A DNA stretch of 64,000 nucleotides from contig JBKECC010000082.1 of the NCBI GenBank assembly GCA_047974135.1, positions 1,391-65,390 on the forward strand, given 5' to 3'. Under the pieces are notes generated by a model. The model did no database searches. It was not told where the DNA came from and saw only the letters and a list, made by a program, of their open reading frames with translations. Every line of letters starts with the position of its first letter. Within the stretch, counting starts at the first letter, position 1. The translations under genes were made by a program, and so were the position numbers. The DNA is from Campylobacteraceae bacterium. GTDB taxonomy: Bacteria; Campylobacterota; Campylobacteria; Campylobacterales; Campylobacteraceae. Positions 3,440-55,164 of this stretch are shown one piece after another.

Positions 3440-3451
3440 TTTACATGTAAA
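3440..3451. repeat. palindrome TTTACATGTAAA (12/12)
   Basis: Starts 2 nt after the CDF transporter stop codon. Confidence 0.9.
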
Positions 3452-23013: not shown

Positions 23014-24476
23014 TGGAAAATATCACATTTGATACTTTAAATCTTGCAACTATTGTGCCGATGTGTATCGCTATCGTTGGAGCTTTAATCATACTTTGTA
23101 TAGATATAGTAAAAAGCTCTCTATCAAAAAGCTTTTATACTATGCTAACCATCTTAGTTCTTTTGATGGATTTAGGAGCTATTTTACTTTTTAGCTCAAA
23201 CGAGAGAGGCTTTTTTGATATGATGCTTGTTGATGGCATAGCCTTGCTTTCGCAAATCATCATCTTGGTGGCTTCCATGCTTTTTATACCGCTTGCACTT
23301 AGTAAAACAGACTTTAATGAACACAAATTTGCAGAGTATTTTGCACTATTTTTGTTCATGATTGCTGGTTTTCAATTTATGGTGGCAACAGAAAACCTCA
23401 TACTTATCTTTTTAGGATTAGAGACTGCTTCACTTGCACTTTATGCTCTTATAGCTATGCACGGAAGAACAAAAGCGGTTGAGGCTGCATTAAAGTATTT
23501 TGTGATGGGAGCATTAGCTGCTGGATTTTACGCATTTGGCTCGATGATATTTTATGCACTAACAGGAAGTGTTGAGATTAGTATAATCGTAGAAAGACTT
23601 GGTGAGAGAGGATATGAGCCAATATTTGCAGTGCTTGGAGCGACTATTTTTATACTAGCAACTTTAGCCTTTAAACTCTCGCTCATACCTTTTCACACAT
23701 GGACGCCAGACGTTTATGAAGGAAGTTCGGCTCCGCTTGCAGGATATATGTCTATAGTTCCAAAGATAGCAGCTTTTGTGGTTGCTATAAGATTTTTTGA
23801 TTTGTTGTTATCTTCAAATCTTACTTGGCTTCACGATATGCTCTATGTACTTGTTGTGCTTACCATGACACTTTCTAACTTGATGGCATTAGTTCAAAGC
23901 GACGTAAAAAGAATGTTAGCATTTAGCTCCATCTCTCACGCTGGTTTTGTTCTTGCAGCTGTTCTCATCAACTCCGAGCAAGGAAACAGTGCTGTTTTTG
24001 TTTACTGGATACTTTTCATGTTTTCAAATCTTGGGGCTTTTTCTATGCTTTGGCTCGCAAGAAACAAACAAAATCTTTGGGATGAGAGATACCAACATCC
24101 ATATATAAAATTTTCAGGGATGATACAAGTTTCACCTATGGCAGCTACACTTATGGGGCTTTTTATGCTCTCTTTGGCCGGGCTTCCACCTTTTTCAGTA
24201 TTTTGGGGCAAAATCTATATCTTAGGAGCTGCTATAAATGCTGGATATGTTATCTTGGCAATTATCATGGCGTTAAACAGTGCCGTCGCTATTTACTACT
24301 ACTTAAAGCTTGTAGTATATATATTTTTAAAAGATCCTATAAGTGAAGATGGCAATATATATATCATAAACTCATCTAAACCGCTAAAAGTTGTAGTTGG
24401 ATTTGCCGCACTTACCACTTTGTTTGCTATATTTTTAGTTGAGCCAATCTTAAAGCTTGTAAGCATTTACATGTAA
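23013..24476 (+). CDS. nuoN: NADH-quinone oxidoreductase subunit N
   Basis: Antiporter-like subunit. Its TAA stop codon is formed by a palindrome copy. Confidence 0.85.
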   Translation: MENITFDTLNLATIVPMCIAIVGALIILCIDIVKSSLSKSFYTMLTILVLLMDLGAILLFSSNERGFFDMMLVDGIALLSQIIILVASMLFIPLALSKTDFNEHKFAEYFALFLFMIAGFQFMVATENLILIFLGLETASLALYALIAMHGRTKAVEAALKYFVMGALAAGFYAFGSMIFYALTGSVEISIIVERLGERGYEPIFAVLGATIFILATLAFKLSLIPFHTWTPDVYEGSSAPLAGYMSIVPKIAAFVVAIRFFDLLLSSNLTWLHDMLYVLVVLTMTLSNLMALVQSDVKRMLAFSSISHAGFVLAAVLINSEQGNSAVFVYWILFMFSNLGAFSMLWLARNKQNLWDERYQHPYIKFSGMIQVSPMAATLMGLFMLSLAGLPPFSVFWGKIYILGAAINAGYVILAIIMALNSAVAIYYYLKLVVYIFLKDPISEDGNIYIINSSKPLKVVVGFAALTTLFAIFLVEPILKLVSIYM

Positions 24477-24477
24477 G
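24466..24477. repeat. palindrome copy TTTACATGTAAg (11/12)
   Basis: Its TAC-ATG-TAA frame supplies the last two codons and the stop of nuoN. Confidence 0.9.
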
Positions 24478-24486
24478 GGCAAAAAA

Positions 24487-24762
24487 TTGAATTTTATATA
24501 TGAAAAAGATAGGATTTATGCAAAAGATGAAAATGAAGAAGTGGTTGCAGAAATCACTTTTCCACTTATTGATGAAAACACGGTTAATATAAACCACACT
24601 TTTGTTTCACCAAAACTTCGTGGCGGTGGCGTTGCATCAAAACTTATGCTTGAATGTTGTGAAGTGTTAAAAAAAGAGGGCAAAAAAGCTGTTGCAACTT
24701 GCTCATACGCAGATATTTGGTTTAAAAGAAACAGTGAGTACACTTACATTTTAAAAAACTAA
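24487..24762 (+). CDS. small GNAT-fold N-acetyltransferase-like protein
   Basis: 91 aa. Motif region LRGGGVASKLM resembles an acetyl-CoA-binding loop. Confidence 0.5.
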   Translation: MNFIYEKDRIYAKDENEEVVAEITFPLIDENTVNINHTFVSPKLRGGGVASKLMLECCEVLKKEGKKAVATCSYADIWFKRNSEYTYILKN

Positions 24763-24768
24763 ATTTTA

Positions 24769-24780
24769 TTTACATGTAAA
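24769..24780. repeat. palindrome TTTACATGTAAA (12/12)
   Basis: 7 nt after the GNAT stop, in the convergent gap with the response regulator. A one-mismatch copy TTTACAgGTAAA follows at 24793-24804. Confidence 0.9.
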
Positions 24781-24806
24781 GAGTTTTAAGCCTTTACAGG
24801 TAAACT

Positions 24807-25463
24807 CTACTCAATCATATATCCAACGCCTCTAACGCTTTTGATGATTTCTCCAACTTTTTTGTTTATCTTAAAAGCAAGGCTTCGAACCGTTACATCT
24901 TTTATATCTTTGTCATCCCAAACATACTGACGCAAGTTTTCACCAAGAACTATCAACCCTTTTTGATTTATGAGTATAGACAAAAAAAGCTTCTCTTTTT
25001 TGGTTAAAACCACCTCTTTGTCTTTATAAAGCAAGGAAGAAGTTAGAGTATTAAAATACAAAAATTCATTGATTTTTACGCTATTTTTTGAACAGTCACT
25101 TTTTGGCTGAAAAGAGTTGTGGTAGTTTATCCTTACTATAAGCTCTTTCGTGTCAAAAGGTTTTTTTACAAAATCATTGCATCCAGCTTCGTATGCTTTT
25201 GTTATATTTTTTATGCCGCCATCTATACTTATAGCTAATATAATGGCGTTTTGATTTGATTTTCTTATCATCTCTATAAGATCAAAAGCGTTGTAACTAT
25301 TGCTATTTAAGTCTATGATGTATATATCGTATTTTTTATTTATCAAAATTCCATAAGAGCTATAACCATCAAAAAAGCTATCAACAAAAAAGTCAAACTG
25401 TTGAAGTGTGTTTTTGATATTTTTGTTTAATGCTATATCGCTTTCAATCATAAATACTTTCAT
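24807..25463 (-). CDS. OmpR-family response regulator (receiver + winged helix), no adjacent kinase
   Basis: Receiver Asp in YIIDLNS, conserved Lys in VKKPF, C-terminal wHTH RSLAFKINKK...GVGYMIE. The N-terminal acidic pocket is ESD rather than DD/ED. Confidence 0.8.
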   Translation of the reverse strand: MKVFMIESDIALNKNIKNTLQQFDFFVDSFFDGYSSYGILINKKYDIYIIDLNSNSYNAFDLIEMIRKSNQNAIILAISIDGGIKNITKAYEAGCNDFVKKPFDTKELIVRINYHNSFQPKSDCSKNSVKINEFLYFNTLTSSLLYKDKEVVLTKKEKLFLSILINQKGLIVLGENLRQYVWDDKDIKDVTVRSLAFKINKKVGEIIKSVRGVGYMIE

Positions 25464-25626
25464 TTTTTAACCTTTTACATGTAGATGTAATTATATAAAT
25501 GAAACGAATTCGTTACTGCTTAAAAAATAAACAATAATAATTTTAAATTTTGTACAAAAACAACAAAAAAGCAACACTTATTTTTTATACTTCGACATAT
25601 AAACTTTTTAAGGGGGAATTTCAAAT

Positions 25627-26892
25627 ATGAAGTTTTCAAAACTCATAGCAGCTTCTGCTTTGGTTGTGTTTGGTGTATGCGCACAAGCTGCGGATACTAT
25701 CAAGGTTGGTGTTTTACACTCACTTTCAGGAACGATGGCTATTTCTGAAACAACATTAAAAGATACAGTTTTAATGCTTGTAGAAGAACAAAATAAAAAA
25801 GGTGGACTACTAGGCAAAAAACTAGAAGCAGTTGTAGTTGACCCAGCTTCAAACTGGCCACTTTTTGCTGAAAAAGCAAGAGAGCTTTTAACAAAAGATA
25901 AAGTTGATGTTATCTTTGGTGCTTGGACATCTGTTTCAAGAAAGTCTGTTTTACCAGTAGTTGAAGAGTTAAATGGTTTGATGTTTTACCCTGTTCAATA
26001 CGAAGGCGAAGAGTCATCTAAAAACATTTTCTATACCGGTGCTGCTCCAAACCAACAAGCAATCCCTGCAGTTGATTACTTAATGAATGATGTTGGCGTT
26101 ACAAGATGGGTTCTTGCTGGAACTGACTATGTATATCCAAGAACTACAAATAAAATCTTAGAAGTTTACTTAAAATCAAAGGGTGTCAAGCCAGAAGATA
26201 TTATGATTAACTACACTCCATTTGGTCACTCTGACTGGCAAAATATAGTAAGCGATATCAAAAAATTTGGTAGTGCTGGTAAGAAAACAGCTGTTGTTTC
26301 AACAATCAACGGTGATGCAAACGTTCCTTTTTATAAAGAGTTAGCAAATCAAGGTGTAAAAGCTGAAGATATTCCTGTTATCGCATTTTCAGTAGGTGAA
26401 GAAGAGTTAGCTGGTATTGACACAAAACCACTAGTTGGACACTTAGCTGCATGGAACTACTTCCAAAGTGTAAAATCTCCTGCAAACACAGCTTTTATTA
26501 AAGAGTGGAAAACATTTATAAAAGACAATAAAAGAGTTACAAACGACCCAATGGAAGCAACATATATCGGCTTTAATATGTGGGTAAAAGCAGTTGAAAA
26601 AGCTGGAACTACAAATGTAGATAAAGTTTTAGATGCAATCGTTGGCGTAAGTGTTCCAAACCTAAGTGGCGGCACTTCAACAATGCTTAAAAACCACCAT
26701 ATCACAAAACCAGTGTTAATCGGTGAAATTCAAGAAGATGGTCAATTTGAAATCGTTTGGGAAACAAAAGGTTTAGTTCCTGGCGATGCATGGAGCGATT
26801 TCCTTCCTGAGAGTAAAGACTTAGATGCTGATTGGACAAAACCTATCTTTTGTGGAAGCTACAATACAAAAACAAAAACTTGTTCAAAATAA
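25627..26892 (+). CDS. urtA: urea ABC transporter substrate-binding protein
   Basis: Signal peptide plus type I periplasmic binding fold. First gene of the urtABCDE order. Confidence 0.85.
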   Translation: MKFSKLIAASALVVFGVCAQAADTIKVGVLHSLSGTMAISETTLKDTVLMLVEEQNKKGGLLGKKLEAVVVDPASNWPLFAEKARELLTKDKVDVIFGAWTSVSRKSVLPVVEELNGLMFYPVQYEGEESSKNIFYTGAAPNQQAIPAVDYLMNDVGVTRWVLAGTDYVYPRTTNKILEVYLKSKGVKPEDIMINYTPFGHSDWQNIVSDIKKFGSAGKKTAVVSTINGDANVPFYKELANQGVKAEDIPVIAFSVGEEELAGIDTKPLVGHLAAWNYFQSVKSPANTAFIKEWKTFIKDNKRVTNDPMEATYIGFNMWVKAVEKAGTTNVDKVLDAIVGVSVPNLSGGTSTMLKNHHITKPVLIGEIQEDGQFEIVWETKGLVPGDAWSDFLPESKDLDADWTKPIFCGSYNTKTKTCSK

Positions 26893-26901
26893 ACAAACCT
26901 A

Positions 26902-26923
26902 AGCAGGGATGATTTTCCCTGCT
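26902..26923 (+). terminator. GC-rich stem-loop AGCAGGG-atgatttt-CCCTGCT between urtA and urtB (partial terminator/attenuator)
   Basis: 7-bp stem, 8-nt loop, followed by TTATCTTT, 10 nt after the urtA stop. Confidence 0.45.
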
Positions 26924-26944
26924 TTATCTTTAAGGTTAAACATA

Positions 26945-28516
26945 ATGAGACTGATAAAAATTTTATTGCTTAATTTATTAATGATTACATTCTGCTTTTC
27001 AAATAGCAGTTTTGAAGATGAATCAAAAGAGTTAATTAGCGCAAATTTTATAAACAAAGAATTGATTATTAATAAGTTATCGCAAGATTATAAGGATGAC
27101 AAAAAAGTAGAAAATCTACTAACAAATATGTTAGCTGGAAATCTTTACTCATTAAGTGATAGCCTTGTATATGAAGAGAAAAGCAAATACTTTGATTTAA
27201 GTGGTGTTGAGCTTTTACATGTAAACATAGATGAGTTAAAGAAAATAACCATAAATAATAAATTGCGTGGAACTATCCGTTCAAATCTTGTGGTTATAAA
27301 TCTAACTTCAAGCGATGACAAAGTAAGACTGAAAGCCGCAAAAGATTTACTTGCAAACATAAATGAAGATAGTTTAGCTCTTATAGAGACAGCACTTAAG
27401 AGTGAAAAAAACTCTAAAGTGTCTGACGTTTTGCATGAAGGGTTAGATATATTAAATGCCAAATATTTAACTGGCGAGAAACAACTTGACGCCATAAATA
27501 ACCTTGGTGATTACCTTTCACCTCAGGCTCTACAAGTTTTAAATGAGTTAAAAGATTCAAGCGATGAAGCAGTAAAAAATGCAGCAATAGAGTCTATAAC
27601 TTCTATAGAACATTCAAAGAAGTTTTACTCATTTTTGGAGACATTTTTCTTTGGACTAAGCGCAGGCTCTGTACTTTTGCTTGCTGCTATGGGACTTGCT
27701 ATAACTTTTGGAGTTATGAAAGTGATAAATATGGCTCATGGCGAACTTATAATGCTTGGAGCTTATACAACTTACACAGTTCAACAATTAATGCCAAACT
27801 TTATAGGAGCTTCAATCATCGTCTCCATTCCGTTAGCGTTTTTAGTTAGTGCGTTAGTTGGTATTTTAATTGAACGTCTTGTTATAAGACATTTATACAA
27901 AAGACCTCTTGAAGCACTTCTTGCTACTTTTGGTATAAGCCTTATCTTGCAACAGCTTGTTCGTAGTATCTACTCACCACTAAACAAAGAGGTAAAAACT
28001 CCAGAGTGGTTAAGTGGTTCGTTAGAGATAAACAATGTTTTATCGCTAACATACAACAGGCTTTATATCATCATATTTGCTCTGATCGTCTTTGCATTTT
28101 TACTTTTTGTTATGAAGAAAACGTCTTTAGGATTAAAAGTACGTGCTGTTTCGCAAAATAGAAATATGGCAAAAGCGATGGGAATAAAAACAGAATGGAT
28201 TGACGCTCTCACCTTTGGTATAGGCTCTGGCATCGCTGGAGTTGCCGGAGTTGCACTTAGCCAGCTAACAAACGTTGGACCAAATCTTGGACAAGCGTAT
28301 ATAGTTGACTCATTTATGGTTGTTGTATTTGGTGGAGTTGGAAACTTGTGGGGAACACTTATAGCAGCACTAAGCCTTGGAGAGATTTCAAAGATTATAG
28401 AGCCTATAAGTGGAGCGGTGTTAGCAAAAGTTTTAATTTTGATTTTCGTGATTATATTTATACAAAAAAGGCCTCGTGGATTGTTTCCACAAAAAGGCCG
28501 TGATGCTGAGGATTGA
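26945..28516 (+). CDS. urtB: urea ABC transporter permease with ~230-aa N-terminal periplasmic extension
   Basis: Branched-chain-type permease core. Start moved to the ATG at 26945 (RBS AAGG upstream), because the track start at 26909 lies inside the hairpin loop. Confidence 0.8.
   Translation: MRLIKILLLNLLMITFCFSNSSFEDESKELISANFINKELIINKLSQDYKDDKKVENLLTNMLAGNLYSLSDSLVYEEKSKYFDLSGVELLHVNIDELKKITINNKLRGTIRSNLVVINLTSSDDKVRLKAAKDLLANINEDSLALIETALKSEKNSKVSDVLHEGLDILNAKYLTGEKQLDAINNLGDYLSPQALQVLNELKDSSDEAVKNAAIESITSIEHSKKFYSFLETFFFGLSAGSVLLLAAMGLAITFGVMKVINMAHGELIMLGAYTTYTVQQLMPNFIGASIIVSIPLAFLVSALVGILIERLVIRHLYKRPLEALLATFGISLILQQLVRSIYSPLNKEVKTPEWLSGSLEINNVLSLTYNRLYIIIFALIVFAFLLFVMKKTSLGLKVRAVSQNRNMAKAMGIKTEWIDALTFGIGSGIAGVAGVALSQLTNVGPNLGQAYIVDSFMVVVFGGVGNLWGTLIAALSLGEISKIIEPISGAVLAKVLILIFVIIFIQKRPRGLFPQKGRDAED
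27214..27225. repeat. palindrome TTTACATGTAAA (12/12)
   Basis: Inside the urtB N-terminal extension, read as LHVN. Confidence 0.9.
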
Positions 28517-29655
28517 TTGAGATGAAAAGAGAGCCTATTTTATTAAAATTATACAAAAGTGACAGAGGCGGAGTTATGGTTCTTACCTCTTTGTTTATTT
28601 TTGTTATGCTTATATCTTTTTGTAATTTGGTAGTGCCTGCTGGTTCGGTTTTTCATGTATCAACCTTTACGGTTACCATCATAGGAAAGTATTTAGCTTT
28701 TGCACTTTTAGCCTTAGCGCTTGACCTTGTTTGGGGTTATGTTGGGATTTTAAGTTTGGGGCATGGCGTGTTTTTTGCACTTGGTGGATATGCTATGGGC
28801 ATGTATTTAATGCGTCAAATAGGTGATCGTGGAGTTTACTCAAATCCTGAATTGCCAGATTTTATGGTTTTTATGGGATACAAAGATTTGCCTTGGTTTT
28901 GGTATGGTTTTGACAATCCTATTTTTACTTTTGTAATGATTGGTTTGGTTCCAGGCATTTTGGCTTTTATATTTGGTTTTTTTGCATTTCGTTCTCGTGT
29001 TACAGGAGTTTATCTCTCTATCATAACTCAAGCACTAACTTACGCATTTATGTTAGCGTTTTTTAGAAACGATATGGGTTTTGGTGGAAACAATGGACTT
29101 ACAGATTTTAAAGATATATTAGGATTTAACCTTCAAAGTGATGGCACAAGAGTTGGACTTTTGATACTATCATTTATCATGCTTTTGCTTGGTTATCTTG
29201 TTTGTAAGTTTATAGTAAACTCAAGACTTGGTAGAGTTATAACCTCTATAAAGACAAGCGAAAGTCGTGTGCGATTTTTAGGATATAGAGTTGAACAGTA
29301 TAAACTTTTTATATTTGTTGTCTCAGCTGTGTTAGCAGGTATTGCGGGTGCACTTTATGTTCCTCAGGTAGGTATCATAAATCCAAACCTTTTTGCTCCA
29401 CTTTTTTCTATTGAGATAGTTATTTGGGTGGCGATAGGTGGACGAGGAACTCTTTATGGAGCAATCATCGGAGCGTTTGTTGTAAACTTTGCAAGCACAT
29501 ACTTCACATCAGCATTTCCTGAAGTTTGGTTGTATGCTCTTGGTTGATTGTTTGTTCTTGTTACCTTGTTTTTACCACAAGGAATCGCAGGGATTTTACC
29601 AAAAATAAAACTATTTTTAAAAAGTAGAAGTTTACAACAAGGAGCTACAAAATGA
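28513..29655 (+). pseudogene. urtC: urea ABC transporter permease UrtC interrupted by in-frame TGA at 29545-29547
   Basis: After the TGA the same frame continues LFVLVTLFLPQGIAGILPKIK..., the conserved permease C-terminus. It ends at a TGA overlapping the urtD ATG (ATGA). Confidence 0.6.
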
Positions 29656-30428
29656 AGATAAATCCAGAATTTTTAGGTAGCTTTATAAAAGGAAATCGTA
29701 TCTTACTTGTTGATAACGTTAGTGTTAGTTTTGATGGTTTTAAAGCCCTAAACTCACTCTCTTTAGCTATTGATTATTGTGAGCTTAGATGCATTATCGG
29801 TGCAAATGGTGCAGGAAAAAGCACTATGATGGATGTTATAACAGGAAAAACAAAGCCAGATAACGGAGAAGTAGTTTTTGGAAAAAACGTAAATTTGTTA
29901 GAACTTGATGAGCCAACCATCGCAGAGCTTGGAATCGGCAGAAAGTTTCAAAAACCAACTGTTTTTAGCGATTTAAGTGTTTTTGAAAATTTAGAACTTG
30001 CAATGGCTGATGATAAAAGATTTAGAAAGACACTGTTTGCAAAGTTAAAATACTCACAAAGAGACAGAATCGAAGAGACGATGAATCTTGTAGGGTTAAA
30101 AGATTTTTATAAATGTGAAGCAGGTATACTCTCACACGGACAAAAACAGTGGCTTGAGATTGGAATGCTTATCATGCAAAATCCAAAAATCATGTTAGTG
30201 GATGAGCCAGTTGCTGGTATGACACCTGCAGAGGTTGAAAAAACGGGAGAGATTTTAAAAGAACTTTCAAAAACAAGCTCCGTTGTTGTGGTTGAACACG
30301 ATATGGAATTTATAAGAAGTTTGGCTTCAAAGGTAACCGTTTTACATGAGGGTTCAGTGCTAGCAGAGGGTTCAATGCAAAGCATTCAAAACAATGAAAA
30401 AGTAAGAAAAGTTTATTTAGGCGAGTAG
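29652..30428 (+). CDS. urtD: urea ABC transporter ATP-binding protein
   Basis: Walker A GANGAGKST and ABC signature. Confidence 0.85.
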   Translation: MKINPEFLGSFIKGNRILLVDNVSVSFDGFKALNSLSLAIDYCELRCIIGANGAGKSTMMDVITGKTKPDNGEVVFGKNVNLLELDEPTIAELGIGRKFQKPTVFSDLSVFENLELAMADDKRFRKTLFAKLKYSQRDRIEETMNLVGLKDFYKCEAGILSHGQKQWLEIGMLIMQNPKIMLVDEPVAGMTPAEVEKTGEILKELSKTSSVVVVEHDMEFIRSLASKVTVLHEGSVLAEGSMQSIQNNEKVRKVYLGE

Positions 30429-30430
30429 AT

Positions 30431-31126
30431 ATGTTTAAAGTAGAAAAAATAAATCAGTATTATGGACAAAGCCACACATTAAGAGATGTAAGTTTTGAGT
30501 TAGAGCGTGCAAAATGTACTTGCTTGATGGGAAGAAACGGAGTTGGAAAAACCACATTTTGTAAAGTCGCTATGGGACTTTTAGATATAAAAAGTGGTGG
30601 GATATTTTTTGAAGACAAAGATATCTCAAAACTCTCAGCTGTAAAAAGAGCATCTTTGGGAATTGGCTATGTACCTCAAGGAAGAGAGATTTTCTCATCT
30701 CTAAGTGTAAAAGAAAATTTAGAGATTGGAGTAATGGGAAATAGACACAAGATAAAAAACGTACCAGAAAAGGTATATGAACTTTTCCCTGTTTTAAAAG
30801 ATATGCAAAACAGAAAAGGCGGAGATCTCTCGGGCGGACAACAACAACAATTGGCCATCGGACGCGCTCTTTGTATTGACCCTGTGATGCTTATCTTAGA
30901 TGAACCAAGTGAGGGTATTCAACCAAATATCGTTGCACAAATCGGAGATGTTATAGATTATCTAACAAAAGAAGAGAAGATAACAGTTTTACTTATTGAG
31001 CAAAAACTGCCATTTGCAAGAAAACATGGAGATAACTTTTTTATCATGGATAGAGGTAGCATCATGGCAAAAGGCGAGATGAGTAAGCTTAGCGATGCTG
31101 TTATAAAAGAGTTTTTGTCGGTGTAA
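30431..31126 (+). CDS. urtE: urea ABC transporter ATP-binding protein
   Basis: Walker A GRNGVGKTT and LSGGQQQ signature. Confidence 0.85.
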   Translation: MFKVEKINQYYGQSHTLRDVSFELERAKCTCLMGRNGVGKTTFCKVAMGLLDIKSGGIFFEDKDISKLSAVKRASLGIGYVPQGREIFSSLSVKENLEIGVMGNRHKIKNVPEKVYELFPVLKDMQNRKGGDLSGGQQQQLAIGRALCIDPVMLILDEPSEGIQPNIVAQIGDVIDYLTKEEKITVLLIEQKLPFARKHGDNFFIMDRGSIMAKGEMSKLSDAVIKEFLSV

Positions 31127-31127
31127 A

Positions 31128-31877
31128 ATGAGTTTATCTTTTGGGTTTGATAACAATATATTTTCGCTTAACAAAGTAAGTTTGCCAAGTAGATACTACT
31201 ACTTTAAAGAGAAGCAAAACTACGTAAAACTCGTGAGTGTTGGGGAAGGACTTTTTCCAAAAGATAAGATAAATAACACTATAAAACTAACAAACTCATC
31301 GTTAGTGTTAGCAAGCGAAAGCGCTACAAAAGTTTATAAAAGTAGTGAGCATTTTGCTATAAATAGATTTGATTTTGAACTTCAAAACTCTAATCTAGAG
31401 TTTTTAAATGATGAACTTATTTTGTTTAAAAATTCAAAATTATTACAATTTTTTTCTCTTAATTTTGATGAAAATTCAACCTTTTTTTATACTGATTTGT
31501 TAAGCAGTGGAAGAAGTTTTGAGAATTATGATTTTTCATCTTTACATGTAAAGAATAAATTCCTACATAACGGCATTTTAGAGTATTTAGAAGAGTATGA
31601 GATTGGTGGAAATGAAGTCAAAAAATACTTAGAAGATTTCTCACTTGACAAAAGACTTTTTGCAAAGGTTTATGTAAAGATAAAAAATAGTGAAAGCTTT
31701 ACATGTAAACTTTTACATGTAAATGTAAATTCCTATGAATATACGCAAAACAAAGCATTTTTAATAGTTTTAGTAAGTGGAGAGACTATAGGCGATTTAA
31801 AGTCAAAGATAAAAGAGATTTGGAAGATTTATAGAGAAGAGTCTGGTTTAAAAGAGTTTGATTTAGGAAAGTTTTAG
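31128..31877 (+). CDS. ureD: probable urease accessory protein UreD/UreH
   Basis: Called by position directly upstream of ureAB and its ~250-aa size. Sequence is divergent. Contains three palindrome copies. Confidence 0.45.
31541..31552. repeat. palindrome TTTACATGTAAA (12/12)
   Basis: Inside the ureD-like CDS, read as LHVK. Confidence 0.9.
31698..31709. repeat. palindrome TTTACATGTAAA (12/12)
   Basis: Inside the ureD-like CDS, read as FTCK. First of a tandem pair. Confidence 0.9.
31712..31723. repeat. palindrome TTTACATGTAAA (12/12)
   Basis: 2 bp after the previous copy, read as LHVN (protein ...[12 protein letters not shown]...). Confidence 0.9.
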
Positions 31878-31887
31878 AGGAGTTTTT

Positions 31888-32562
31888 ATGTTTTTAACTA
31901 AACGCGAACAAGAAAAATTGATGATTTATACAGCTGCAAAACTCTCATTAGAGAGAAAAGCAAGAGGTTTAAAACTAAATTATCCAGAAGCAGTTGCCAT
32001 TATTAGTCACTTCATCATCGAAGGTGCAAGAGATGGTAAAAGTGTTAGTGAACTTATGAGTAGTGCTACAAAGATTTTAAACAGAGACGATGTGCTTGAC
32101 GGGGTTGCCTACATGCTTGACATGGTGCAAGTTGAAGCAACTTTTGAAGATGGCACAAAACTTGTTAGTGTTCATCACCCAATCCCTGTAGATGAAGATA
32201 ATGAGATAGGCGGATACATCATAGAAGATGGTGAGATAGAGTTAAATGAAAACAGAAACACTATAACCATCGAAGTTGAAAATAGAGGCGATAGACCAGT
32301 ACAAATTGGCTCGCATTATCACTTTTTTGAAGTAAACAAATATCTCTATTTTGATAGAAAAAAAGCTTATGGTATGAGACTTGATGTCCCTTCTGGAACC
32401 TCTGTTAGATTTGAGCCGGGTTCCCACAAGAAAGTCTCACTCATACCGTACAGTGGCAAAAGATTTATAAGCGGATTTAACGGTTTAGTTGAAGGGTTTT
32501 TGGATGATGAAGCTGTAAAGCAAAAAGCCTTGTTAAATTTAAAAACATTTCTAGAGGAGTAA
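31888..32562 (+). CDS. ureAB: urease gamma-beta fused subunit
   Basis: N-terminal 100 aa matches UreA (gamma), remainder matches UreB (beta). Confidence 0.85.
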
Positions 32563-32567
32563 GTTCT

Positions 32568-34265
32568 ATGAAAATCTCAAAAACAAAATACGCTTCTATG
32601 TATGGACCCACTATAAACGATAGATTTAGACTCTCTGACACAAGTTTGATTGCAAGAATAGAGAAAGATTTCACGCTTTATGGTGAAGAGAGTAAATTTG
32701 GTGGTGGAAAAACTATCCGTGATGGCATGAGTCAATCTCCAACTTGCCAAGAAGGGGCAGATTTAATCTTAACTAACGCTATCATCATCGACTACACAGG
32801 GATTTATAAAGCTGATATCGCAATAAAAAATGGCAAGATAAGTGCTATTGGAAAATCAGGAAATCCAAACATAACAGACGGCATAACAGAAGGCATGGAA
32901 ATTGGTGCAAACACAGAGATTTTATCTTGTGAAGGAAAAATCATCACAGCTGGAGGCATCGATACACACATACACTTTATATCGCCAGAACAGATAGATG
33001 AAGCTTTGTCTTCCGGGGTTACGACTATGTTTGGTGGAGGAACTGGACCAAATACTGGAACAAATGCCACTACTTGTACGCCAGGAGCTTGGAATTTGCA
33101 CAAAATGATGCAAAGTGTGGATAACATCCCACTAAACTTTGGTTTTATGGGAAAAGGAAACAGTAGTTCAGGTGAAGCATTAAAAGTGCAGATAAAAGCA
33201 GGGGCTTGTGGCTTAAAACTTCATGAAGATTGGGGTTCAACTCCAAAAGCCATAGATACATGTTTGGGTATCGCTGATGAGTTTGATGTTCAAGTTGCGA
33301 TTCACACAGATACTTTAAATGAGGCTGGATTTGTAGATAGTACCATTGATTCATTTAAAAACAGAATTATCCACACTTTTCACAGCGAGGGTGCAGGAGG
33401 TGGACACGCACCAGATATCATGAAAGTTGTTGGACTTAAAAATATCCTACCTTCATCAACAAATCCAACCTTGCCTTACACAAAAAATACCATAGAAGAG
33501 CACCTTGATATGCTGATGGTTTGTCATCACTTAAGTCCAAAAATCCCTGAAGATGTGAGTTTTGCAGAGAGTAGAATAAGAGGAAAAACCATAGCCGCAG
33601 AAGATGTGCTTCATGACATTGGTGCTATCTCTATAACAAGTTCTGACTCACAAGCTATGGGAAGAGTTGGCGAAGTTATAATTAGAACTTGGCAGGTTGC
33701 AGACTCCATGAAAAAACAACGCGGGAAACTTGACATTGACACATATAAAGATGACAATAACCGCATAAAAAGATATATCGCAAAATACACTATAAACCCT
33801 GCAATCGCTTGTGGGATAGATGAGATTGTTGGAAGTGTAGAAGTTGGCAAAATGGCGGATTTAGTTTTGTGGAATAGGGCATTTTTTGGAGTAAAACCAG
33901 AAATCATCATAAAAGGCGGATTTATAGCTCTTTCAATCATGGGAGATTCAAATGCTTCTATACCAACTCCTGAGCCAAATCTATATAGAAAAATGTTTGG
34001 AAGTTTAGGAAAAGCAGCTGCAAATTCGAGCGTACTTTTTACATCAAAATATGCAAAAGAAAACAACACTTTACCAAAGTTAGATAAAAAAATTGTAGCA
34101 GTAAAAAACACAAGAAATATCTCAAAAGAAAATATGAAATTAAATAACTTCACAGGCGATATAAAGATAGATAGCGAGAGTTATGATGTGTATGTAAATG
34201 GTGAACTTATAGTTTCAAACTTTGTAGATGAGGTTCCACTCGCACGCCGTTATTTTCTATTTTAA
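32568..34265 (+). CDS. ureC: urease alpha subunit
   Basis: 565 aa with amidohydrolase nickel-site motifs (HxH, MVCHHL). Confidence 0.9.
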
Positions 34266-34274
34266 GGATCAAAA

Positions 34275-34709
34275 GTGATAAAAAAAGTTGTTAAACTAAA
34301 CACAAAAGAACATGCAAGCGACAGCGTTGAACTCTCTTGGTTTGATATGCACAAACCAAACCTAACTGCCATAACACAAAAAGGCGTTGAGTTCATAGTA
34401 AAAGTAAAAGGCTCACACTTACATGTAAACGATATTTTAGTTTGTGATGATGGTTACGCTATAGCTATAAACAGGGCACACGATGATGTTTATATCTTAG
34501 AGTTTAAAGATGCTCTTTTATTTGCAAAAACAGCTTACGAGATAGGAAATAGACACCAACCAATCAATATAGAAAACAACAAAATCACAGCACTTCAAGA
34601 CTTAAGCATAGAAGATATCATCTTAAATCTTGAGCGAGATGAAAGTGTAAGCGTGGCAAAAACTAAAACATTTTTTAAGTCAAATGCAAAAGCGTCACAC
34701 TCACACTAA
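34275..34709 (+). CDS. ureE: urease accessory protein UreE
   Basis: GTG start with RBS AAGGA. 144 aa, no His-rich tail. Confidence 0.7.
   Translation: MIKKVVKLNTKEHASDSVELSWFDMHKPNLTAITQKGVEFIVKVKGSHLHVNDILVCDDGYAIAINRAHDDVYILEFKDALLFAKTAYEIGNRHQPINIENNKITALQDLSIEDIILNLERDESVSVAKTKTFFKSNAKASHSH
34418..34429. repeat. palindrome copy cTTACATGTAAA (11/12)
   Basis: Inside ureE, read as LHVN. Confidence 0.9.
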
Positions 34710-35376
34710 GGCGTTAAGTAGATTTACGCAGATACTTGATAGCTCCTTCCCAAATGGAGCTTTTACGCACTCTTTTGGGCTTGAACCATTTGTCTTAGAA
34801 GGTATCATAAAAGATAAAAACTCACTTTTTTCATTCTTGAAAAATGTCATATCATATCAGTATGAAAAGTTTGAATTTCCAATCATCACAAAGGTTTATG
34901 AGTATTGTGAAAGTGGCAAATTGAACCTAATAGTAAAGTTAGATAAAAAGATACAAGCTATGCAAATGTATGAATTTGCAAAAGCCTATAAAAATATCGG
35001 CGAAAACATTTTTTTTCAACTTCAAAACTTAGAGCTTAAAAAGAGTATAACTAAGAGCTATTTTTTACATGTAAAAGATAGAAAAACTCCAGCAAATGAA
35101 ATGGTTATACTTGGTATTTTTGCTTATGAGAGTAGTTTACATGTAAAAGATTTTATGGCTCTTTTTGCAAAGAAAAATCTGATGAATATAGCAACAAGCT
35201 CTCTTAAAGTCTCAAGACTAAAACCAAGTGAAGTGCAAGAGATTTTGTTTATGATCGATGATATTTTAGACGCTTCTGTGGAGAAAAAATATAGTAAAAT
35301 TTCAAACTTCAATCCATTTTTTGAAGAGATTATATTTAAACACAAACATTTAGAACCAAAACTTTTTACAACTTGA
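34684..35376 (+). CDS. ureF: urease accessory protein UreF
   Basis: FPNGAFTHSFGLE motif. Overlaps ureE, so the true start may be later. Confidence 0.7.
   Translation: MQKRHTHTKALSRFTQILDSSFPNGAFTHSFGLEPFVLEGIIKDKNSLFSFLKNVISYQYEKFEFPIITKVYEYCESGKLNLIVKLDKKIQAMQMYEFAKAYKNIGENIFFQLQNLELKKSITKSYFLHVKDRKTPANEMVILGIFAYESSLHVKDFMALFAKKNLMNIATSSLKVSRLKPSEVQEILFMIDDILDASVEKKYSKISNFNPFFEEIIFKHKHLEPKLFTT
35064..35075. repeat. palindrome TTTACATGTAAA (12/12)
   Basis: Inside ureF, read as LHVK. Confidence 0.9.
35136..35147. repeat. palindrome TTTACATGTAAA (12/12)
   Basis: Inside ureF, read as LHVK. Confidence 0.9.
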
Positions 35377-35383
35377 GGATACG

Positions 35384-35974
35384 ATGAAAAGCATAAAAAT
35401 AGGCGTAGCAGGACCAGTTGGAAGTGGCAAAACTTCTTTAATAGAAAGCCTAACAAACTTACTTAAAAACGAACATAAAGTAGCGATTATTACAAATGAT
35501 ATATACACAAAAGAGGATGCAAACTACCTAAAAAGTCACCTTGATATCGATAGTGAAATGATTGTAGGCGTTGAAACGGGAGGCTGTCCGCATACCGCTA
35601 TACGAGATGACATCTCGATGAATAAAAAAGCTTGTATAGAACTTGAAGAGAAGTTTGCACCAGAAATCATCTTTGTAGAGAGTGGAGGAGACAACCTATC
35701 GGCTACCTTTTCTTATGAGCTTGTGGACTTTTACATGTACATTATTGATGTGGCACAGGGTGCCGATATACCAAGAAAAAAAGGTGCAGGACTTTTATAT
35801 AGTGATTTGCTCGTTGTAAATAAAACTGACTTAGCTCCATTTGTTGATGTTGATTTGGTAAGCATGAAAGAGGATGTAGAAAAAAATAGAAAAAATAAGC
35901 CATTTTTGTTTGTTTCTAAAAAAGATAATAACACACTTTTAAAACTCAAAAGTTGGATAGAAGCACTTTTATAA
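35384..35974 (+). CDS. ureG: urease accessory GTPase UreG
   Basis: P-loop GPVGSGKTS. Aligns with H. pylori UreG at equal length. Confidence 0.9.
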   Translation: MKSIKIGVAGPVGSGKTSLIESLTNLLKNEHKVAIITNDIYTKEDANYLKSHLDIDSEMIVGVETGGCPHTAIRDDISMNKKACIELEEKFAPEIIFVESGGDNLSATFSYELVDFYMYIIDVAQGADIPRKKGAGLLYSDLLVVNKTDLAPFVDVDLVSMKEDVEKNRKNKPFLFVSKKDNNTLLKLKSWIEALL

Positions 35975-35975
35975 T

Positions 35976-35987
35976 TTTACATGTAAA
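35976..35987. repeat. palindrome TTTACATGTAAA (12/12)
   Basis: Starts 2 nt after the ureG stop. Left edge of the TA cassette region. Confidence 0.9.
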
Positions 35988-36290
35988 AAACATTTTAAAC
36001 TTTTTTGGAATATTTTTACTTGTAAAATTCTTGGATGTTTTTTCCGTGCATTGCGGCAAAAACCGTTAAGAAATTTGAGTGAGAAAGCGTTAAGAAAAAT
36101 AAATGTTTGAGGTATTCCGAGTTTTTGTTTTTTAGCTTTCGAACGACAATTTTAGGTTTTTAAGCACTAGCACTTGAATTTTGTTTCTTTTTTTCCAAGA
36201 AAAAGAAAGAGAAGAAAGCCAAAACTTTAGTTGCAATAACTAAGAGCAAAAAGATTTAAGTTCGCATACAAAACCTCTTCCTATCATAAA

Positions 36291-36319
36291 TTGACATTTT
36301 GAATAAAATTGAATATAAT
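36291..36319 (+). promoter_or_regulatory. sigma70-type promoter of toxin-antitoxin operon (-35 TTGACA 36291-36296, -10 TATAAT 36314-36319, 17-bp spacer)
   Basis: Consensus hexamers with ideal spacing about 37 bp upstream of the antitoxin ATG. RBS GGACAAGGAT. Confidence 0.5.
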
Positions 36320-36325
36320 TGAATA
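36299..36325 (+). repeat. three direct TTGAATA repeats at exact 10-bp phasing overlapping the promoter (putative operator)
   Basis: TTGAATA at 36299, 36309, 36319. Confidence 0.5.
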
Positions 36326-36355
36326 AAAATTATTTGGCAAGGACAAGGATAAAAG

Positions 36356-36592
36356 ATGAAAACTGTAACCATGAGAGTTGATGATGAAACTTATCAAATC
36401 ATAAAAACAGCTGCAGATGGCGAAAGAAGAAATATATCTAATTTTATAGAGTTTGCAACTATGCAGTATCTAAGCTCGTCAGTATATGTTGATGATAGTG
36501 AAATGGACGAAATTTCAAATGATAAAGAGTTAGTTAAAGCCTTAAAACAAGGGTTAAAAGAAGCAAAAGCGAAAGAGTATAAAATTGTATAA
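36356..36592 (+). CDS. type II antitoxin, ribbon-helix-helix (ParD/CopG-like)
   Basis: 78 aa with N-terminal beta-strand KTVTMRVDDETYQIIK. Overlaps the downstream toxin by 8 nt. Confidence 0.6.
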   Translation: MKTVTMRVDDETYQIIKTAADGERRNISNFIEFATMQYLSSSVYVDDSEMDEISNDKELVKALKQGLKEAKAKEYKIV

Positions 36593-36854
36593 TTTCTCTA
36601 TAGCAGAAACTAAAAGTTTTGAAAAATTAAAAGAGAAGTTGGACAAAAAACTATATACAAAAATAGAAACTTATATCTATCCGCAACTTCGTTCAAATCC
36701 TTTTTATGGCACAAATATCAAAAAACTAAAAGGCGAATTTGAAGGATACTATCGATATAGACTTGGAAATTATAGGCTTTTTTATATCATCGACAATGAG
36801 AAAATTTTAGTAATTATAGTTGATTTTAAACATAGGCAAAATTCATACGATTAA
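36585..36854 (+). CDS. type II toxin, RelE/ParE family
   Basis: 89 aa with YRLFYIIDNEKILVIIVDFKHRQNSY, a typical RelE/ParE C-terminus. Confidence 0.7.
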   Translation: MYNFSIAETKSFEKLKEKLDKKLYTKIETYIYPQLRSNPFYGTNIKKLKGEFEGYYRYRLGNYRLFYIIDNEKILVIIVDFKHRQNSYD

Positions 36855-36874
36855 CAATTTTTTATGCTTTGCAA

Positions 36875-36886
36875 TTTACATGTAAA
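36875..36886. repeat. palindrome TTTACATGTAAA (12/12)
   Basis: Ends 1 nt before the miaA (minus) stop codon. Right edge of the TA cassette region. Confidence 0.9.
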
Positions 36887-36887
36887 G

Positions 36888-37781
36888 CTACAAAACCTTT
36901 AAAATCTCTTCTTCTAAATCTTCAAGTGGTTTTTTAACCAAACTATATTCTAAAAATTGTGTTTTGTTAAAAGTTCTCTGTCTCTTGGCAAGTTTTGCTG
37001 TGTTTGTTGCGATTTTGTTTCCCATCTCTTCAAGCGAGTAAATCCCATCAAAGTAGTCTATAACCTCTTTTAATCCTATGGCTTTCATGCAGTTTGGCTC
37101 TCTTGTGTATTTTTTCTCTAGCCTTGCAACTTCATCAACAAGCCCAGCTTCAATCATCTTTTTAGTTCTAATCTCTATCCTTTTTCGCAAAACTTCCCTA
37201 TCCGTTTCTATCTCAAATATTGGCAAATTTTTGATGATTGGCTCTCTTAGTGTTCGTTTTAAAAAAACGCTTGGAACTTCCTCTGTTTCGTAGTAAATCT
37301 CAAGCCATTTTTCTATGCGATAACTGTCATTTTCTTCTATCTTTAGAGATGCTTCAAAGTCTATGTTTTTTATAAGTTCATGAGAAGCTTTTAAATCTCT
37401 CAAAGCTCTTAGTGTTTTTGCCCTGTTTTCTTCGCTTATGAGAGGTTTGTCGCTAAGACCACTTAGCATCGCTTTTAGGTAAAAACTCGTTCCTCCTACT
37501 ATGATGAGAGGCACATTTTTCTTTTGTGATATCTCAAAACTTTTTTTGTATAAATCAAAAAATATAGTCACGTTAAAGGCTTCATTTGGGTAAATCTCAT
37601 CTATACCAAAATGCAAAATATCTCCCATCTCTTCTTTTGTTGGTTTTGCTGAGGCTATATCTATCTCTTTGTAGATAGAGAGTGAATCAAGCGATAGTAT
37701 GATTCCACCCACTTTTTTTGCTAGCTTTATGCCCAAGTCACTTTTTCCTGAAGCAGTTGTTCCTATAATCGCAATTTGCAT
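36888..37781 (-). CDS. miaA: tRNA dimethylallyltransferase
   Basis: P-loop GTTASGKS near the N-terminus, 297 aa. Confidence 0.9.
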   Translation of the reverse strand: MQIAIIGTTASGKSDLGIKLAKKVGGIILSLDSLSIYKEIDIASAKPTKEEMGDILHFGIDEIYPNEAFNVTIFFDLYKKSFEISQKKNVPLIIVGGTSFYLKAMLSGLSDKPLISEENRAKTLRALRDLKASHELIKNIDFEASLKIEENDSYRIEKWLEIYYETEEVPSVFLKRTLREPIIKNLPIFEIETDREVLRKRIEIRTKKMIEAGLVDEVARLEKKYTREPNCMKAIGLKEVIDYFDGIYSLEEMGNKIATNTAKLAKRQRTFNKTQFLEYSLVKKPLEDLEEEILKVL

Positions 37782-37847
37782 ATTTTGCCTTCAATTTTTT
37801 GGTTAAATTATAACAAAATAAGCCATTTATTTGTAAAATCTCTCATT

Positions 37848-37859
37848 TTTACATGTAAA
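37848..37859. repeat. palindrome TTTACATGTAAA (12/12)
   Basis: Divergent miaA/UbiA promoter gap. A related TTTATTTGTAAA lies at 37826. Confidence 0.9.
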
Positions 37860-37867
37860 GGTATAAT

Positions 37868-38746
37868 TTGTCAAAATTTTTAGCCGTTTTAAAAGATATA
37901 AACGAACTTATCGTATTTAAACACTCCGTTTTTGCATTGCCATTTATTTTTATCGCTATGATTGTTGCATCCGCTCAGTTAAGCGGAACTCCTTGGTTTG
38001 GCTTTAAACTACTTATTTTAGGGCTTTTATGTGCAGTTAGTGCTAGAAACTTTGCTATGAGTTTTAACAGATTTTGTGATGAAGATATAGACAAACATAA
38101 CCCAAGAACTGCAAGTCGTCCAAGTGTTGATGGGCGAATCGGCAAAAGAAATATGATAATTTTCATCGTCATAAACGCAGCTATTTTTATAATCGTTGCA
38201 TTTTTTATAAACAAAACCGCTTTTTATCTCTCTTTTCCAATTCTCATAATACTTGGCGGTTACTCGCTTTTTAAGAGATTTTCTCCTTTGGCACATTTGG
38301 TTTTGGGTCTGTCTTTAGGACTTGCACCAATCGCTGGAAGTATCGCAGTTTTAGGAACTACAACACTTTGGGTTTGGCTACTTTGTTTTGGAGTTATTTT
38401 TTGGGTTGCTGGGTTTGATTTGCTTTACTCTTTGCAAGATATAGATTATGACAAAGCAAATAATCTGCACTCGATTCCATCGCGATATGGCTGGGATGCA
38501 ACGTTTTTTATCTCATTATTATTTCACGGTTTAACTATACTTTTTTGGTTACTTTTTGTCATCGCTGCAAATCTTAGTTTTCTCTCATATTTTGCTGTTA
38601 TCGTAAGCGGAGTTATACTTTTTTGTGAACATAGAATAGTAAGGCGCGACTTTACAAAGATAGATAGAGCGTTTTTTACGCTCAATGGTTATCTTGGTAT
38701 TATATTTTTCTTGTTTGTTTTGTTAGATTTGATTTTTATCGTATAA
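37868..38746 (+). CDS. UbiA-family prenyltransferase (menaquinone/ubiquinone pathway)
   Basis: NRFCDEDIDKHNPRT Asp-rich motif, about 8 TM helices. Confidence 0.7.
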   Translation: MSKFLAVLKDINELIVFKHSVFALPFIFIAMIVASAQLSGTPWFGFKLLILGLLCAVSARNFAMSFNRFCDEDIDKHNPRTASRPSVDGRIGKRNMIIFIVINAAIFIIVAFFINKTAFYLSFPILIILGGYSLFKRFSPLAHLVLGLSLGLAPIAGSIAVLGTTTLWVWLLCFGVIFWVAGFDLLYSLQDIDYDKANNLHSIPSRYGWDATFFISLLFHGLTILFWLLFVIAANLSFLSYFAVIVSGVILFCEHRIVRRDFTKIDRAFFTLNGYLGIIFFLFVLLDLIFIV

Positions 38747-55141: not shown

Positions 55142-55164
55142 ATCCTTTTACATATAAAAGGATT
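55141..55164 (+). terminator. AATCCTTTT-acatat-AAAAGGATT hairpin at radical-SAM gene end
   Basis: 9-bp perfect arms. The centre is a one-mismatch copy of the 12-bp palindrome (TTTACATaTAAA). Confidence 0.35.

Follow-up and report, generated by a model that had tools for sequence, protein, structure and literature searches.

Palindromes bracketing a toxin-antitoxin module at the edge of a urea-utilisation block probably belong to the neighbouring gene ends

The segment described here separates ureG from miaA in a 64-kb stretch of DNA from a Campylobacteraceae genome (the window, by which we mean the whole of that stretch), and its features are collected in Table 1. The original prediction saw in it an accessory toxin-antitoxin (TA) cassette lying between two housekeeping genes and framed at both junctions by exact copies of a 12-nt palindrome, TTTACATGTAAA, which might serve as short homology or recombination sites for cassette gain and loss. 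The motif copies are where they were said to be: both exact copies lie close to the flanking stop codon, with a gap of a single nucleotide in each case, and the one-mismatch copy (TTTACTTGTAAA) is likewise present at 36015. The description of the flanks, on the other hand, does not hold for ureG, which comes last in a lineage-specific urt/ure block and is no conserved neighbour of miaA: among the miaA loci of relatives, none has a ureG within 6 kb. The divergent arrangement of miaA and ubiA is kept in most of 80 relatives.

Table 1. Features of the ureG-miaA segment and of the block to which it belongs (positions within the window)
Feature	Coordinates	Strand	Remarks
nuoN	23013-24476		
One-mismatch palindrome copy	24466-24477		Contains the nuoN stop (TAA); left boundary of the 12.4-kb block
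Lineage-specific block, 12.4 kb	24477-36887		Fills the convergent nuoN/miaA junction
ureG	35384-35974	+	ORF; cobW/UreG PF02492 match, 6e-36; final gene of the ureD-(gamma/beta)-alpha-E-F-G cluster, with upstream ure and urt genes annotated
ureG-side hairpin	35973-36043	+	Arms 35973-35989 and 36013-36029, 17 nt, 94% complementary; T6 at 36038-36043
Exact TTTACATGTAAA palindrome, 12-mer	35976-35987		1 nt past the ureG stop (which ends at 35974)
One-mismatch palindrome copy, TTTACTTGTAAA	36015-36026		
Orphan non-coding spacer	36030-36290		Coding-like GC of 0.32
Conserved mobile TA module, 564 bp	36291-36854	+	From the -35 box to the toxin stop
TA promoter	36291-36325	+	-35 TTGACA 36291-36296, 17-nt spacer, -10 TATAAT 36314-36319; 12/12 match to the sigma-70 consensus
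Antitoxin gene, 78 aa	36356-36592	+	RHH_1 18.3 bits (cut-off 20.5), TacA1 17.7 bits; both sub-threshold
Toxin gene, 89 aa, TTG start	36585-36854	+	RelE/ParE superfamily; overlaps the antitoxin gene by 8 nt
Small hairpin	36866-36888	+	GCUUUGCA pairs with UGUAAAGC, including the right half of the palindrome; -8.4 kcal/mol, z = -2.3
Exact TTTACATGTAAA palindrome, 12-mer	36875-36886		1 nt from the miaA stop, 20 nt past the toxin stop
miaA, tRNA dimethylallyltransferase	36888-37781	-	Stop at 36888-36890; IPPT PF01715, 1.5e-58

That the two small genes constitute a RelE/ParE-type pair with a promoter of their own is confirmed. The toxin scores above the cut-offs of both ParE_toxin (PF05016; 36.8 bits against a cut-off of 23, 6.2e-9) and, marginally, RelE_StbE (TIGR02385; 28.2 bits against 27.9), the solved structures closest to it are Rv2866 and RelE, and its gene overlaps that of the antitoxin upstream. 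Its predicted activity is mRNA cleavage in the manner of RelE, which would make it an mRNA interferase, with gyrase poisoning as by ParE the less likely alternative. We retrieved 658 homologues, mostly unnamed metagenome proteins; those with a name belong to Campylobacterota, except for one 77% match annotated as Candidatus Magnetomoraceae. The family is patchily spread, its best match being 82% identical compared with 72% for the best MiaA. The antitoxin, whose two closest profiles stay below threshold, is probably a ribbon-helix-helix protein: a single-sequence AF2 model of low confidence (pLDDT 51) has a strand at residues 3-6 and helices at residues 10-22 and 24-38. Searches of NCBIfam gave no match to it and profile and sequence searches no PDB relative; the partner genes of homologous toxins share 64-76% identity with it.

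Upstream of the pair, the perfect TTGACA-17-TATAAT promoter at 36291-36319 is overlaid by TTGAATA direct repeats that begin at 36299, 36309 and 36319, a spacing of 10 nt. TTGACA and the first two of these repeats are conserved in all seven other contexts in which the module was compared, and the repeats are good candidates for the antitoxin's operator. In all of this the pair resembles the type II systems RelBE and ParDE (RelE/StbE, M. tuberculosis Rv2865-Rv2866), where an antitoxin gene likewise precedes a small overlapping toxin gene; the likeness extends to the two toxin profiles, to the separate sigma-70 promoter with repeated putative operator sites, and to the variable or defence-type neighbourhoods (AbiEii, SduA_C, HigB and transposase genes) in which homologous modules are found elsewhere. 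The antitoxin, below the Pfam and NCBIfam thresholds and without a PDB relative by sequence, departs from the type.

How far the module extends can be read from seven independent contexts (L081-L093), which we aligned with the window DNA by blastn. Similarity, at 72-77% identity, begins at 36283 to 36296 and ends at 36847 to 36864. In a multiple alignment the flanks have a mean identity of about 0.3. The value climbs to 0.88 immediately inside the -35 box (bin 36296-36315), drops within a variable leader (0.28 at 36336-36355), runs at 0.6-0.9 over both genes and is 0.35 or less from 36856. The architecture of a 78-aa antitoxin and an 8-nt overlap recurs in L081-L083, L087 and L090, the called toxin of L091 and L092 has 94 aa and an overlap of 23 nt, and the upstream gene of L093 was called at 108 aa. 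The neighbours vary: a transketolase gene and bacA, an SduA_C gene and a dCMP deaminase gene, AbiEii and transposase genes, or a HigB/HTH pair. With a 564-bp module present in at least seven unrelated contexts, the claim that this is accessory content is well founded.

The same alignments do not bear out the proposal that the palindromes are the sites of cassette gain and loss. The limits of the module, at 36291 and 36854, do not coincide with the palindromes: its left edge lies 303 nt from the ureG-side copy and its right edge 20 nt from the miaA-side copy. None of the seven other contexts has the motif at a module junction; five lack it throughout the sampled DNA, and in L090 the only copy is about 3 kb away from the module. 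In L083-L086, the one other motif-rich lineage encountered (8.3 kb with five exact copies), the module lies between the transketolase gene and bacA, and neither junction has a motif copy. The module is thus found both in motif-less genomes and in a motif-rich lineage that has no copies at its ends. All four strain variants in L083-L086 carry the module, so that they are uninformative on gain or loss as such.

On a larger scale, the TA module is the right-hand edge of the 12.4-kb block, which consists of a GNAT gene (91 aa), a response regulator, a UrtABCDE-like transporter, the ureD-(gamma/beta)-alpha-E-F-G genes, the orphan spacer and the module itself. The edge of a variable block is a common location for TA modules. 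In L004, L006, L010 and L011 nuoN is also convergent with miaA and a single unrelated gene lies between the two. No tRNA adjoins the ends of the block, no repeat shared by the two ends was found besides the motif itself, and there is no integrase or recombinase among the Pfam-annotated genes at 23013-38746. Motif copies flank both block ends as well as the inner GNAT gene (24466, 24769, 24793 and 36875), and both breakpoints of the block, the nuoN stop and the miaA stop, coincide with copies, as exchange by recombination would likewise predict. The copies at the block ends fit the idea of recombination, but a rule that places copies next to stop codons predicts them equally.

Comparison with relatives is constrained by the isolation of the source organism, a singleton MAG whose nearest other MiaA among 5.8 billion public proteins is 72% identical. 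A scan of GTDB species gave MiaA proteins of at most 69% identity and a metagenome scan UreG proteins of at most 60%; no other contig encoding the exact MiaA was retrieved. The closest MiaA loci (L001-L005, 68-69%) have no exact copy of the motif and at most a single one-mismatch copy, whereas two Sulfurospirillum-type MAGs with more distant MiaA proteins (L010 and L034, 55-57%) carry an exact copy just past the miaA stop, at a distance of 1 nt. The distribution of the motif among lineages is therefore patchy. It is present in a cultured organism, Sulfurospirillum arcachonense DSM 9755, with three exact copies in 12.9 kb (L011). In L010 and L034 there is no TA module beside miaA. Their miaA-adjacent copy has the same placement as the one in the window, although orthology is not provable.

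Between the ureG-side palindromes and the promoter lies the orphan spacer. The segment ahead of the TA pair had been called GC-richer, which is correct relative to other intergenic DNA in the window (0.25), with values of 0.29 for 35988-36290 and 0.32 for 36030-36290, but incorrect relative to coding sequence (mean 0.34) and to the window as a whole (mean 0.334). The spacer has no Rfam match and no ORF longer than 38 aa, it resembles neither other DNA in the window nor loci L001-L086, and it contains no duplication of the flanking ureG or miaA ends. Its predicted RNA structure shows no excess fold signal (z = -0.13 and +0.96), six-frame translation against Pfam yields only a sub-threshold MRP-L47 hit (17.5 bits, cut-off 27), and, considered as a remnant of the genes that relatives have at this junction, it matches them no better than a control region does. 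A 10-nt direct repeat, TACAAAACCT (36267 and 36889), was entertained as a target-site duplication and rejected as chance, because this A/T-rich kilobase contains several repeats of equal length and local alignment does not rise above shuffles.

If the bracket is not a property of the module, what places a palindrome at either end? The distribution of the motif across the window is instructive. There are 27 exact copies in 64 kb, or one per 2.4 kb, where 0.04 would be expected, an excess of about 700-fold that puts the motif far above chance. One-mismatch copies add only 23, spread over 36 possible variants; the exact form dominates. Genes contain 17 of the 27 (63%), of which 13 are read as L-H-V-K and four as F-T-C-K, the third reading frame of the palindrome containing TAA. 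These in-gene copies differ from motif-less relatives synonymously as well as non-synonymously, and the 12-mer is kept inside genes partly via synonymous codon choice.

The other ten exact copies lie in non-coding DNA, which makes up roughly 5% of the window, and their positions follow a rule: intergenic copies mark the 3' ends of transcription units. Six of the ten lie no more than 6 nt downstream of a stop codon, where only 6-8% of possible intergenic placements would put them (binomial P = 9e-6 to 4e-5), and the gap to the stop is an identical 1 nt for the copies at 3440, 35976 and 36875. Counted by gene ends, an exact copy is found within 6 nt at 7 of 31 terminal 3' ends, or at 9 of 31 when one mismatch is allowed. 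Each of the four convergent junctions in the window has at least one copy, and in three cases both of the facing stops have one abutting them. Under such a stop-abutting rule, copies at both ends of any one convergent junction arise with P of about 0.05-0.08, and the bracket is therefore not specific to the TA cassette. The caveat that the arrangement could be coincidental comes nearer the truth than recombination does, except that the placement is not random: it follows from the positional rule.

Several of these copies also sit in potential RNA structures. On the ureG side, the exact copy at 35976 and the one-mismatch copy at 36015 form an inverted repeat and provide the arms of an A/U-rich stem of 17 bp, followed after 8 nt by a run of six Ts; the 101 nt at 35960-36060 fold at -20.7 kcal/mol (z = -2.95). 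A simple consensus terminator scan of 35800-37000 called no site, the hairpin having fewer than three G-C pairs. Its position and form would suit a hairpin at the 3' end, or in the terminator, of the urease operon. The two-copy design recurs downstream of a thioredoxin gene (51026 and 51052, with a perfect 22-bp stem and z = -5.6) and of the GNAT gene (24769 and 24793), and the copies at 55147 and 62556 are embedded in longer palindromes, the latter site with z = -4.0. More generally, 3' ends that carry the motif fold better relative to shuffles than those without it (mean z of -1.69 versus -0.52, p = 0.007). The small hairpin past the toxin gene may likewise be the 3'-end structure of the TA transcript, while on the minus strand, that is, in the miaA transcript, the fold signal of the miaA-side copy is not significant (z = -0.5).

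Sulfurospirillum relatives that have the motif place their intergenic copies at the apex of GC-flanked hairpins, at distances of 4-14 nt from stops (ataacgggTTTACATGTAAAcccgttat of L010 is an example), and the copy in L038 is orthologous to an ordinary, motif-less hairpin in L033. Folding and position together suggest that the intergenic copies contribute to hairpins at 3' ends or in terminators. Intrinsic terminators and REP/BIME-like palindromes offer an obvious parallel, the intergenic 12-mers lying at the 3' ends of transcription units and forming hairpins; in the Sulfurospirillum relatives, as in intrinsic terminators, GC-rich stem extensions are followed by T-rich tails. Unlike REPs, however, the 12-mer has 63% of its copies inside coding sequence, and the hairpins of the window differ from intrinsic terminators in being A/U-rich and in escaping the terminator scan. 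With 17 of 27 copies in genes, a 3'-end role fails to explain why the motif exists.

Taken together, these observations make it likely that the bracketing palindromes belong to the ends of ureG and miaA and that the TA pair is an ordinary, self-contained module at the edge of the urea block. On this explanation, 35976-36886 would close, on the right, a lineage-specific block for urea utilisation lodged in a variable, convergent junction between the nuo operon and miaA, and it would be made up of four independent components. First comes the 3' end of the urease operon, where the exact and the one-mismatch copy would pair into the 17-bp hairpin ahead of the T-run; then the 260-nt orphan spacer; then the TA module; and finally the palindrome of the miaA end, the copy at 36875-36886 presumably being part of the miaA 3' end. 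Within the module, the sigma-70 promoter would drive the antitoxin and overlapping toxin genes, the labile antitoxin would neutralise the toxin through direct binding and, alone or together with the toxin, would repress its own transcription via the TTGAATA operator. The module would move between genomes as a unit, and at the island edge it probably either stabilises the island or merely hitch-hikes. The bracket itself would be owed to the genome-wide placement of the motif directly after the stops of terminal genes, here and in motif-bearing relatives, rather than to insertion of a cassette.

Alternative accounts of the motif deserve consideration. One is that the 12-mer is a DNA-uptake-like signal, analogous to the USS of Haemophilus or the DUS of Neisseria: motif-bearing DNA would be taken up preferentially, the cassette would then enter via homologous recombination in the flanking genes, so that the motif's part in cassette gain would be indirect, and hairpins at 3' ends would simply be a tolerated location. 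Much about the motif is in keeping with such a role. It is a short, exact, lineage-specific word over-represented by some 700-fold in genes and spacers alike; its exact form outnumbers the sum of its variants; its in-gene copies favour one frame and are reached by synonymous and non-synonymous differences; its pairs form hairpins just downstream of genes, as pairs of USS and DUS do; and its patchy distribution resembles the dialects of uptake sequences. Yet the window 12-mer is a perfect palindrome with a CATG core, and to our knowledge none of the known USS and DUS is palindromic. A literature search lent no support either: the 12-mer turns up in unrelated papers only, with nothing found on it in bacteria, and no paper was found that joins the term DNA uptake sequence with Campylobacterota. 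Uptake would account for the motif and not for the specific bracket, the TA module and the spacer being themselves devoid of copies. As an explanation of what we see at this locus we regard it as unlikely. The role of USS and DUS is in uptake and they do not serve as breakpoints for recombination, so that even membership in this class would not support the breakpoint model.

A bolder version, which we hold to be more doubtful still, combines the two ideas: TTTACATGTAAA would be a lineage-specific signal promoting uptake or recombination in Sulfurospirillum-related Campylobacterota, and the nuoN-miaA junction would have been built by the exchange of framed segments (GNAT gene, urea block, TA module). 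Because the motif sits right at stop codons, it would on such a reading frame segments the size of transcription units. If true, this would be the first palindromic signal of its kind.

There remains the proposal with which we began, that the palindromes are short-homology or site-specific recombination sites and that recombination of two copies brought in the segment they enclose and can remove it again. The idea has its attractions. Since the motif is a palindrome, the exact copies at the two ends serve as direct and as inverted repeats at once; a second small accessory gene, GNAT at 24487-24762, is bracketed between the copies at 24466 and 24769; and the whole lineage-specific block likewise ends at copies. 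Against this stand the edges of the unit common to the seven other contexts, neither of which reaches a copy, and the occurrence of that unit where the motif is absent or, in the motif-rich lineage, absent from its junctions; the stop-abutting rule predicts the bracket, at P of about 0.05-0.08 per convergent junction, with no recombination involved. Nor do the genes annotated at 23013-38746 include an integrase or recombinase, and 12 bp is short homology for a RecA-dependent process. Integron attC cassettes and att-flanked islands are the closest model for such a mechanism, and TA cassettes are common in chromosomal integrons; the segment resembles them in being a small accessory unit, promoter-proximal, with imperfect palindromic repeats on either side. 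It differs in having no integrase among those genes and no tRNA beside the block ends, and in a repeat that lies off the edges of the mobile unit (36291 and 36854) and is mostly found inside genes. The model is thus unsupported rather than refuted, and we consider it very improbable. Least probable of all is pure chance, in which two of many copies happen to fall at two junctions without any positional rule: the density of the motif invites the thought, as did the original prediction's own caveat, but random intergenic placement would put 6-8% of copies within 6 nt of a stop and not the 60% observed (P of about 1e-5), nor would it give three window copies and those of L010 and L034 an identical 1-nt gap.

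What we describe, then, is no new mechanism of cassette exchange but a routine TA module of the RelE/ParE type at the border of an accessory block. The more interesting object is the 12-mer itself, which combines USS-like statistics with a position 1-6 nt after stops in spacers and is found patchily, in some Sulfurospirillum, the cultured S. arcachonense DSM 9755 being one of the carriers. Its function is a question separate from that of the TA bracket. Should it prove to be a signal for uptake or for termination, it would provide a new tool for the genetics of this group and a new example of how a word can be driven through an entire genome.

The 12-nt palindrome TTTACATGTAAA is present in 27 exact copies in the window (1-64000), where 0.04 would be expected. 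Its placement is structured as well: 63% of copies lie within genes, in a reading frame strongly skewed to LHVK, and intergenic copies tend to follow a stop codon at a distance of 1-6 nt (P about 1e-5). Among the few intergenic copies away from 3' ends is one immediately 5' of a TATAAT in the 86-nt divergent promoter region between miaA and ubiA. In its count and placement statistics the 12-mer resembles a DNA uptake sequence, but it differs in being a perfect palindrome; we found no description of it in the literature.

Among related loci, the 12-mer reaches high density in some Sulfurospirillum-type genomes (L010, L034, L056, L083-L086 and L011, the last being S. arcachonense DSM 9755). We found no exact copy in the loci of the window's closest MiaA relatives (L001-L005), nor in the other Sulfurospirillum loci L006, L013 and L027. 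Note that in L010, L038 and L056 the 12-mer forms the apex of GC-flanked hairpins beside stops.

The convergent nuoN/miaA junction, which holds a single gene in relatives, spans 12.4 kb here and is filled by a block containing urea genes, whose UreG is unusually divergent (60% identity to its best public metagenome relative). This block carries nine exact motif copies, compared with 18 in the remaining 51.6 kb of the window. At its left end, a one-mismatch copy at 24466 supplies the TAA stop of nuoN and borders a GNAT gene, and the motif pair 24769/24793 yields a hairpin between the stops of the GNAT and response-regulator genes. Within the block, ureD contains two exact copies separated by only 2 nt, and a third copy is found at 31541. 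Directly 3' of the urtA-like gene there is also a strong hairpin that lacks the motif (-18.7 kcal/mol, z = -6.4); it has the look of an attenuator or stabiliser within the operon.

Features of the window and of one related toxin-antitoxin (TA) locus
Feature	Coordinates	Remarks
12-mer, example copies	3440, 24769, 51052, 56315, 62556	window
12-mer in miaA/ubiA promoter region	37848-37859	
nuoN/miaA junction	23013-37781	12.4-kb stretch between the two genes: GNAT gene, response regulator, urtABCDE-like genes, ureD-G, TA module
GNAT acetyltransferase gene	24487-24762	91 aa; motif copies on both sides (region 24466-24804)
Hairpin 3' of urtA-like gene	26893-26908	
12-mer pair in ureD	31698-31723	
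Third 12-mer accompanying the ureD pair	31541	
Partial TA duplicate	3467-3672	in L081

In L081, another genomic context of the homologous TA module, a partial tandem duplicate comprising the TA promoter and the antitoxin gene's 5' portion sits just upstream of the complete module, adjoined by an SduA_C (Shedu-type) gene. This duplicate may hint at how the module recombines.

What might maintain the 12-mer within genes? At the conserved peptide LHVKEF (window 39722), the codons TTA CAT GTA AAA create a complete motif, as they do in the motif-bearing L011 orthologue, whereas the motif-less L006 orthologue encodes LHVK as CTA CAT GTA AAG. Judged from these sequences, the codon choice is evidence for selection that would act at the DNA level, through synonymous codons.
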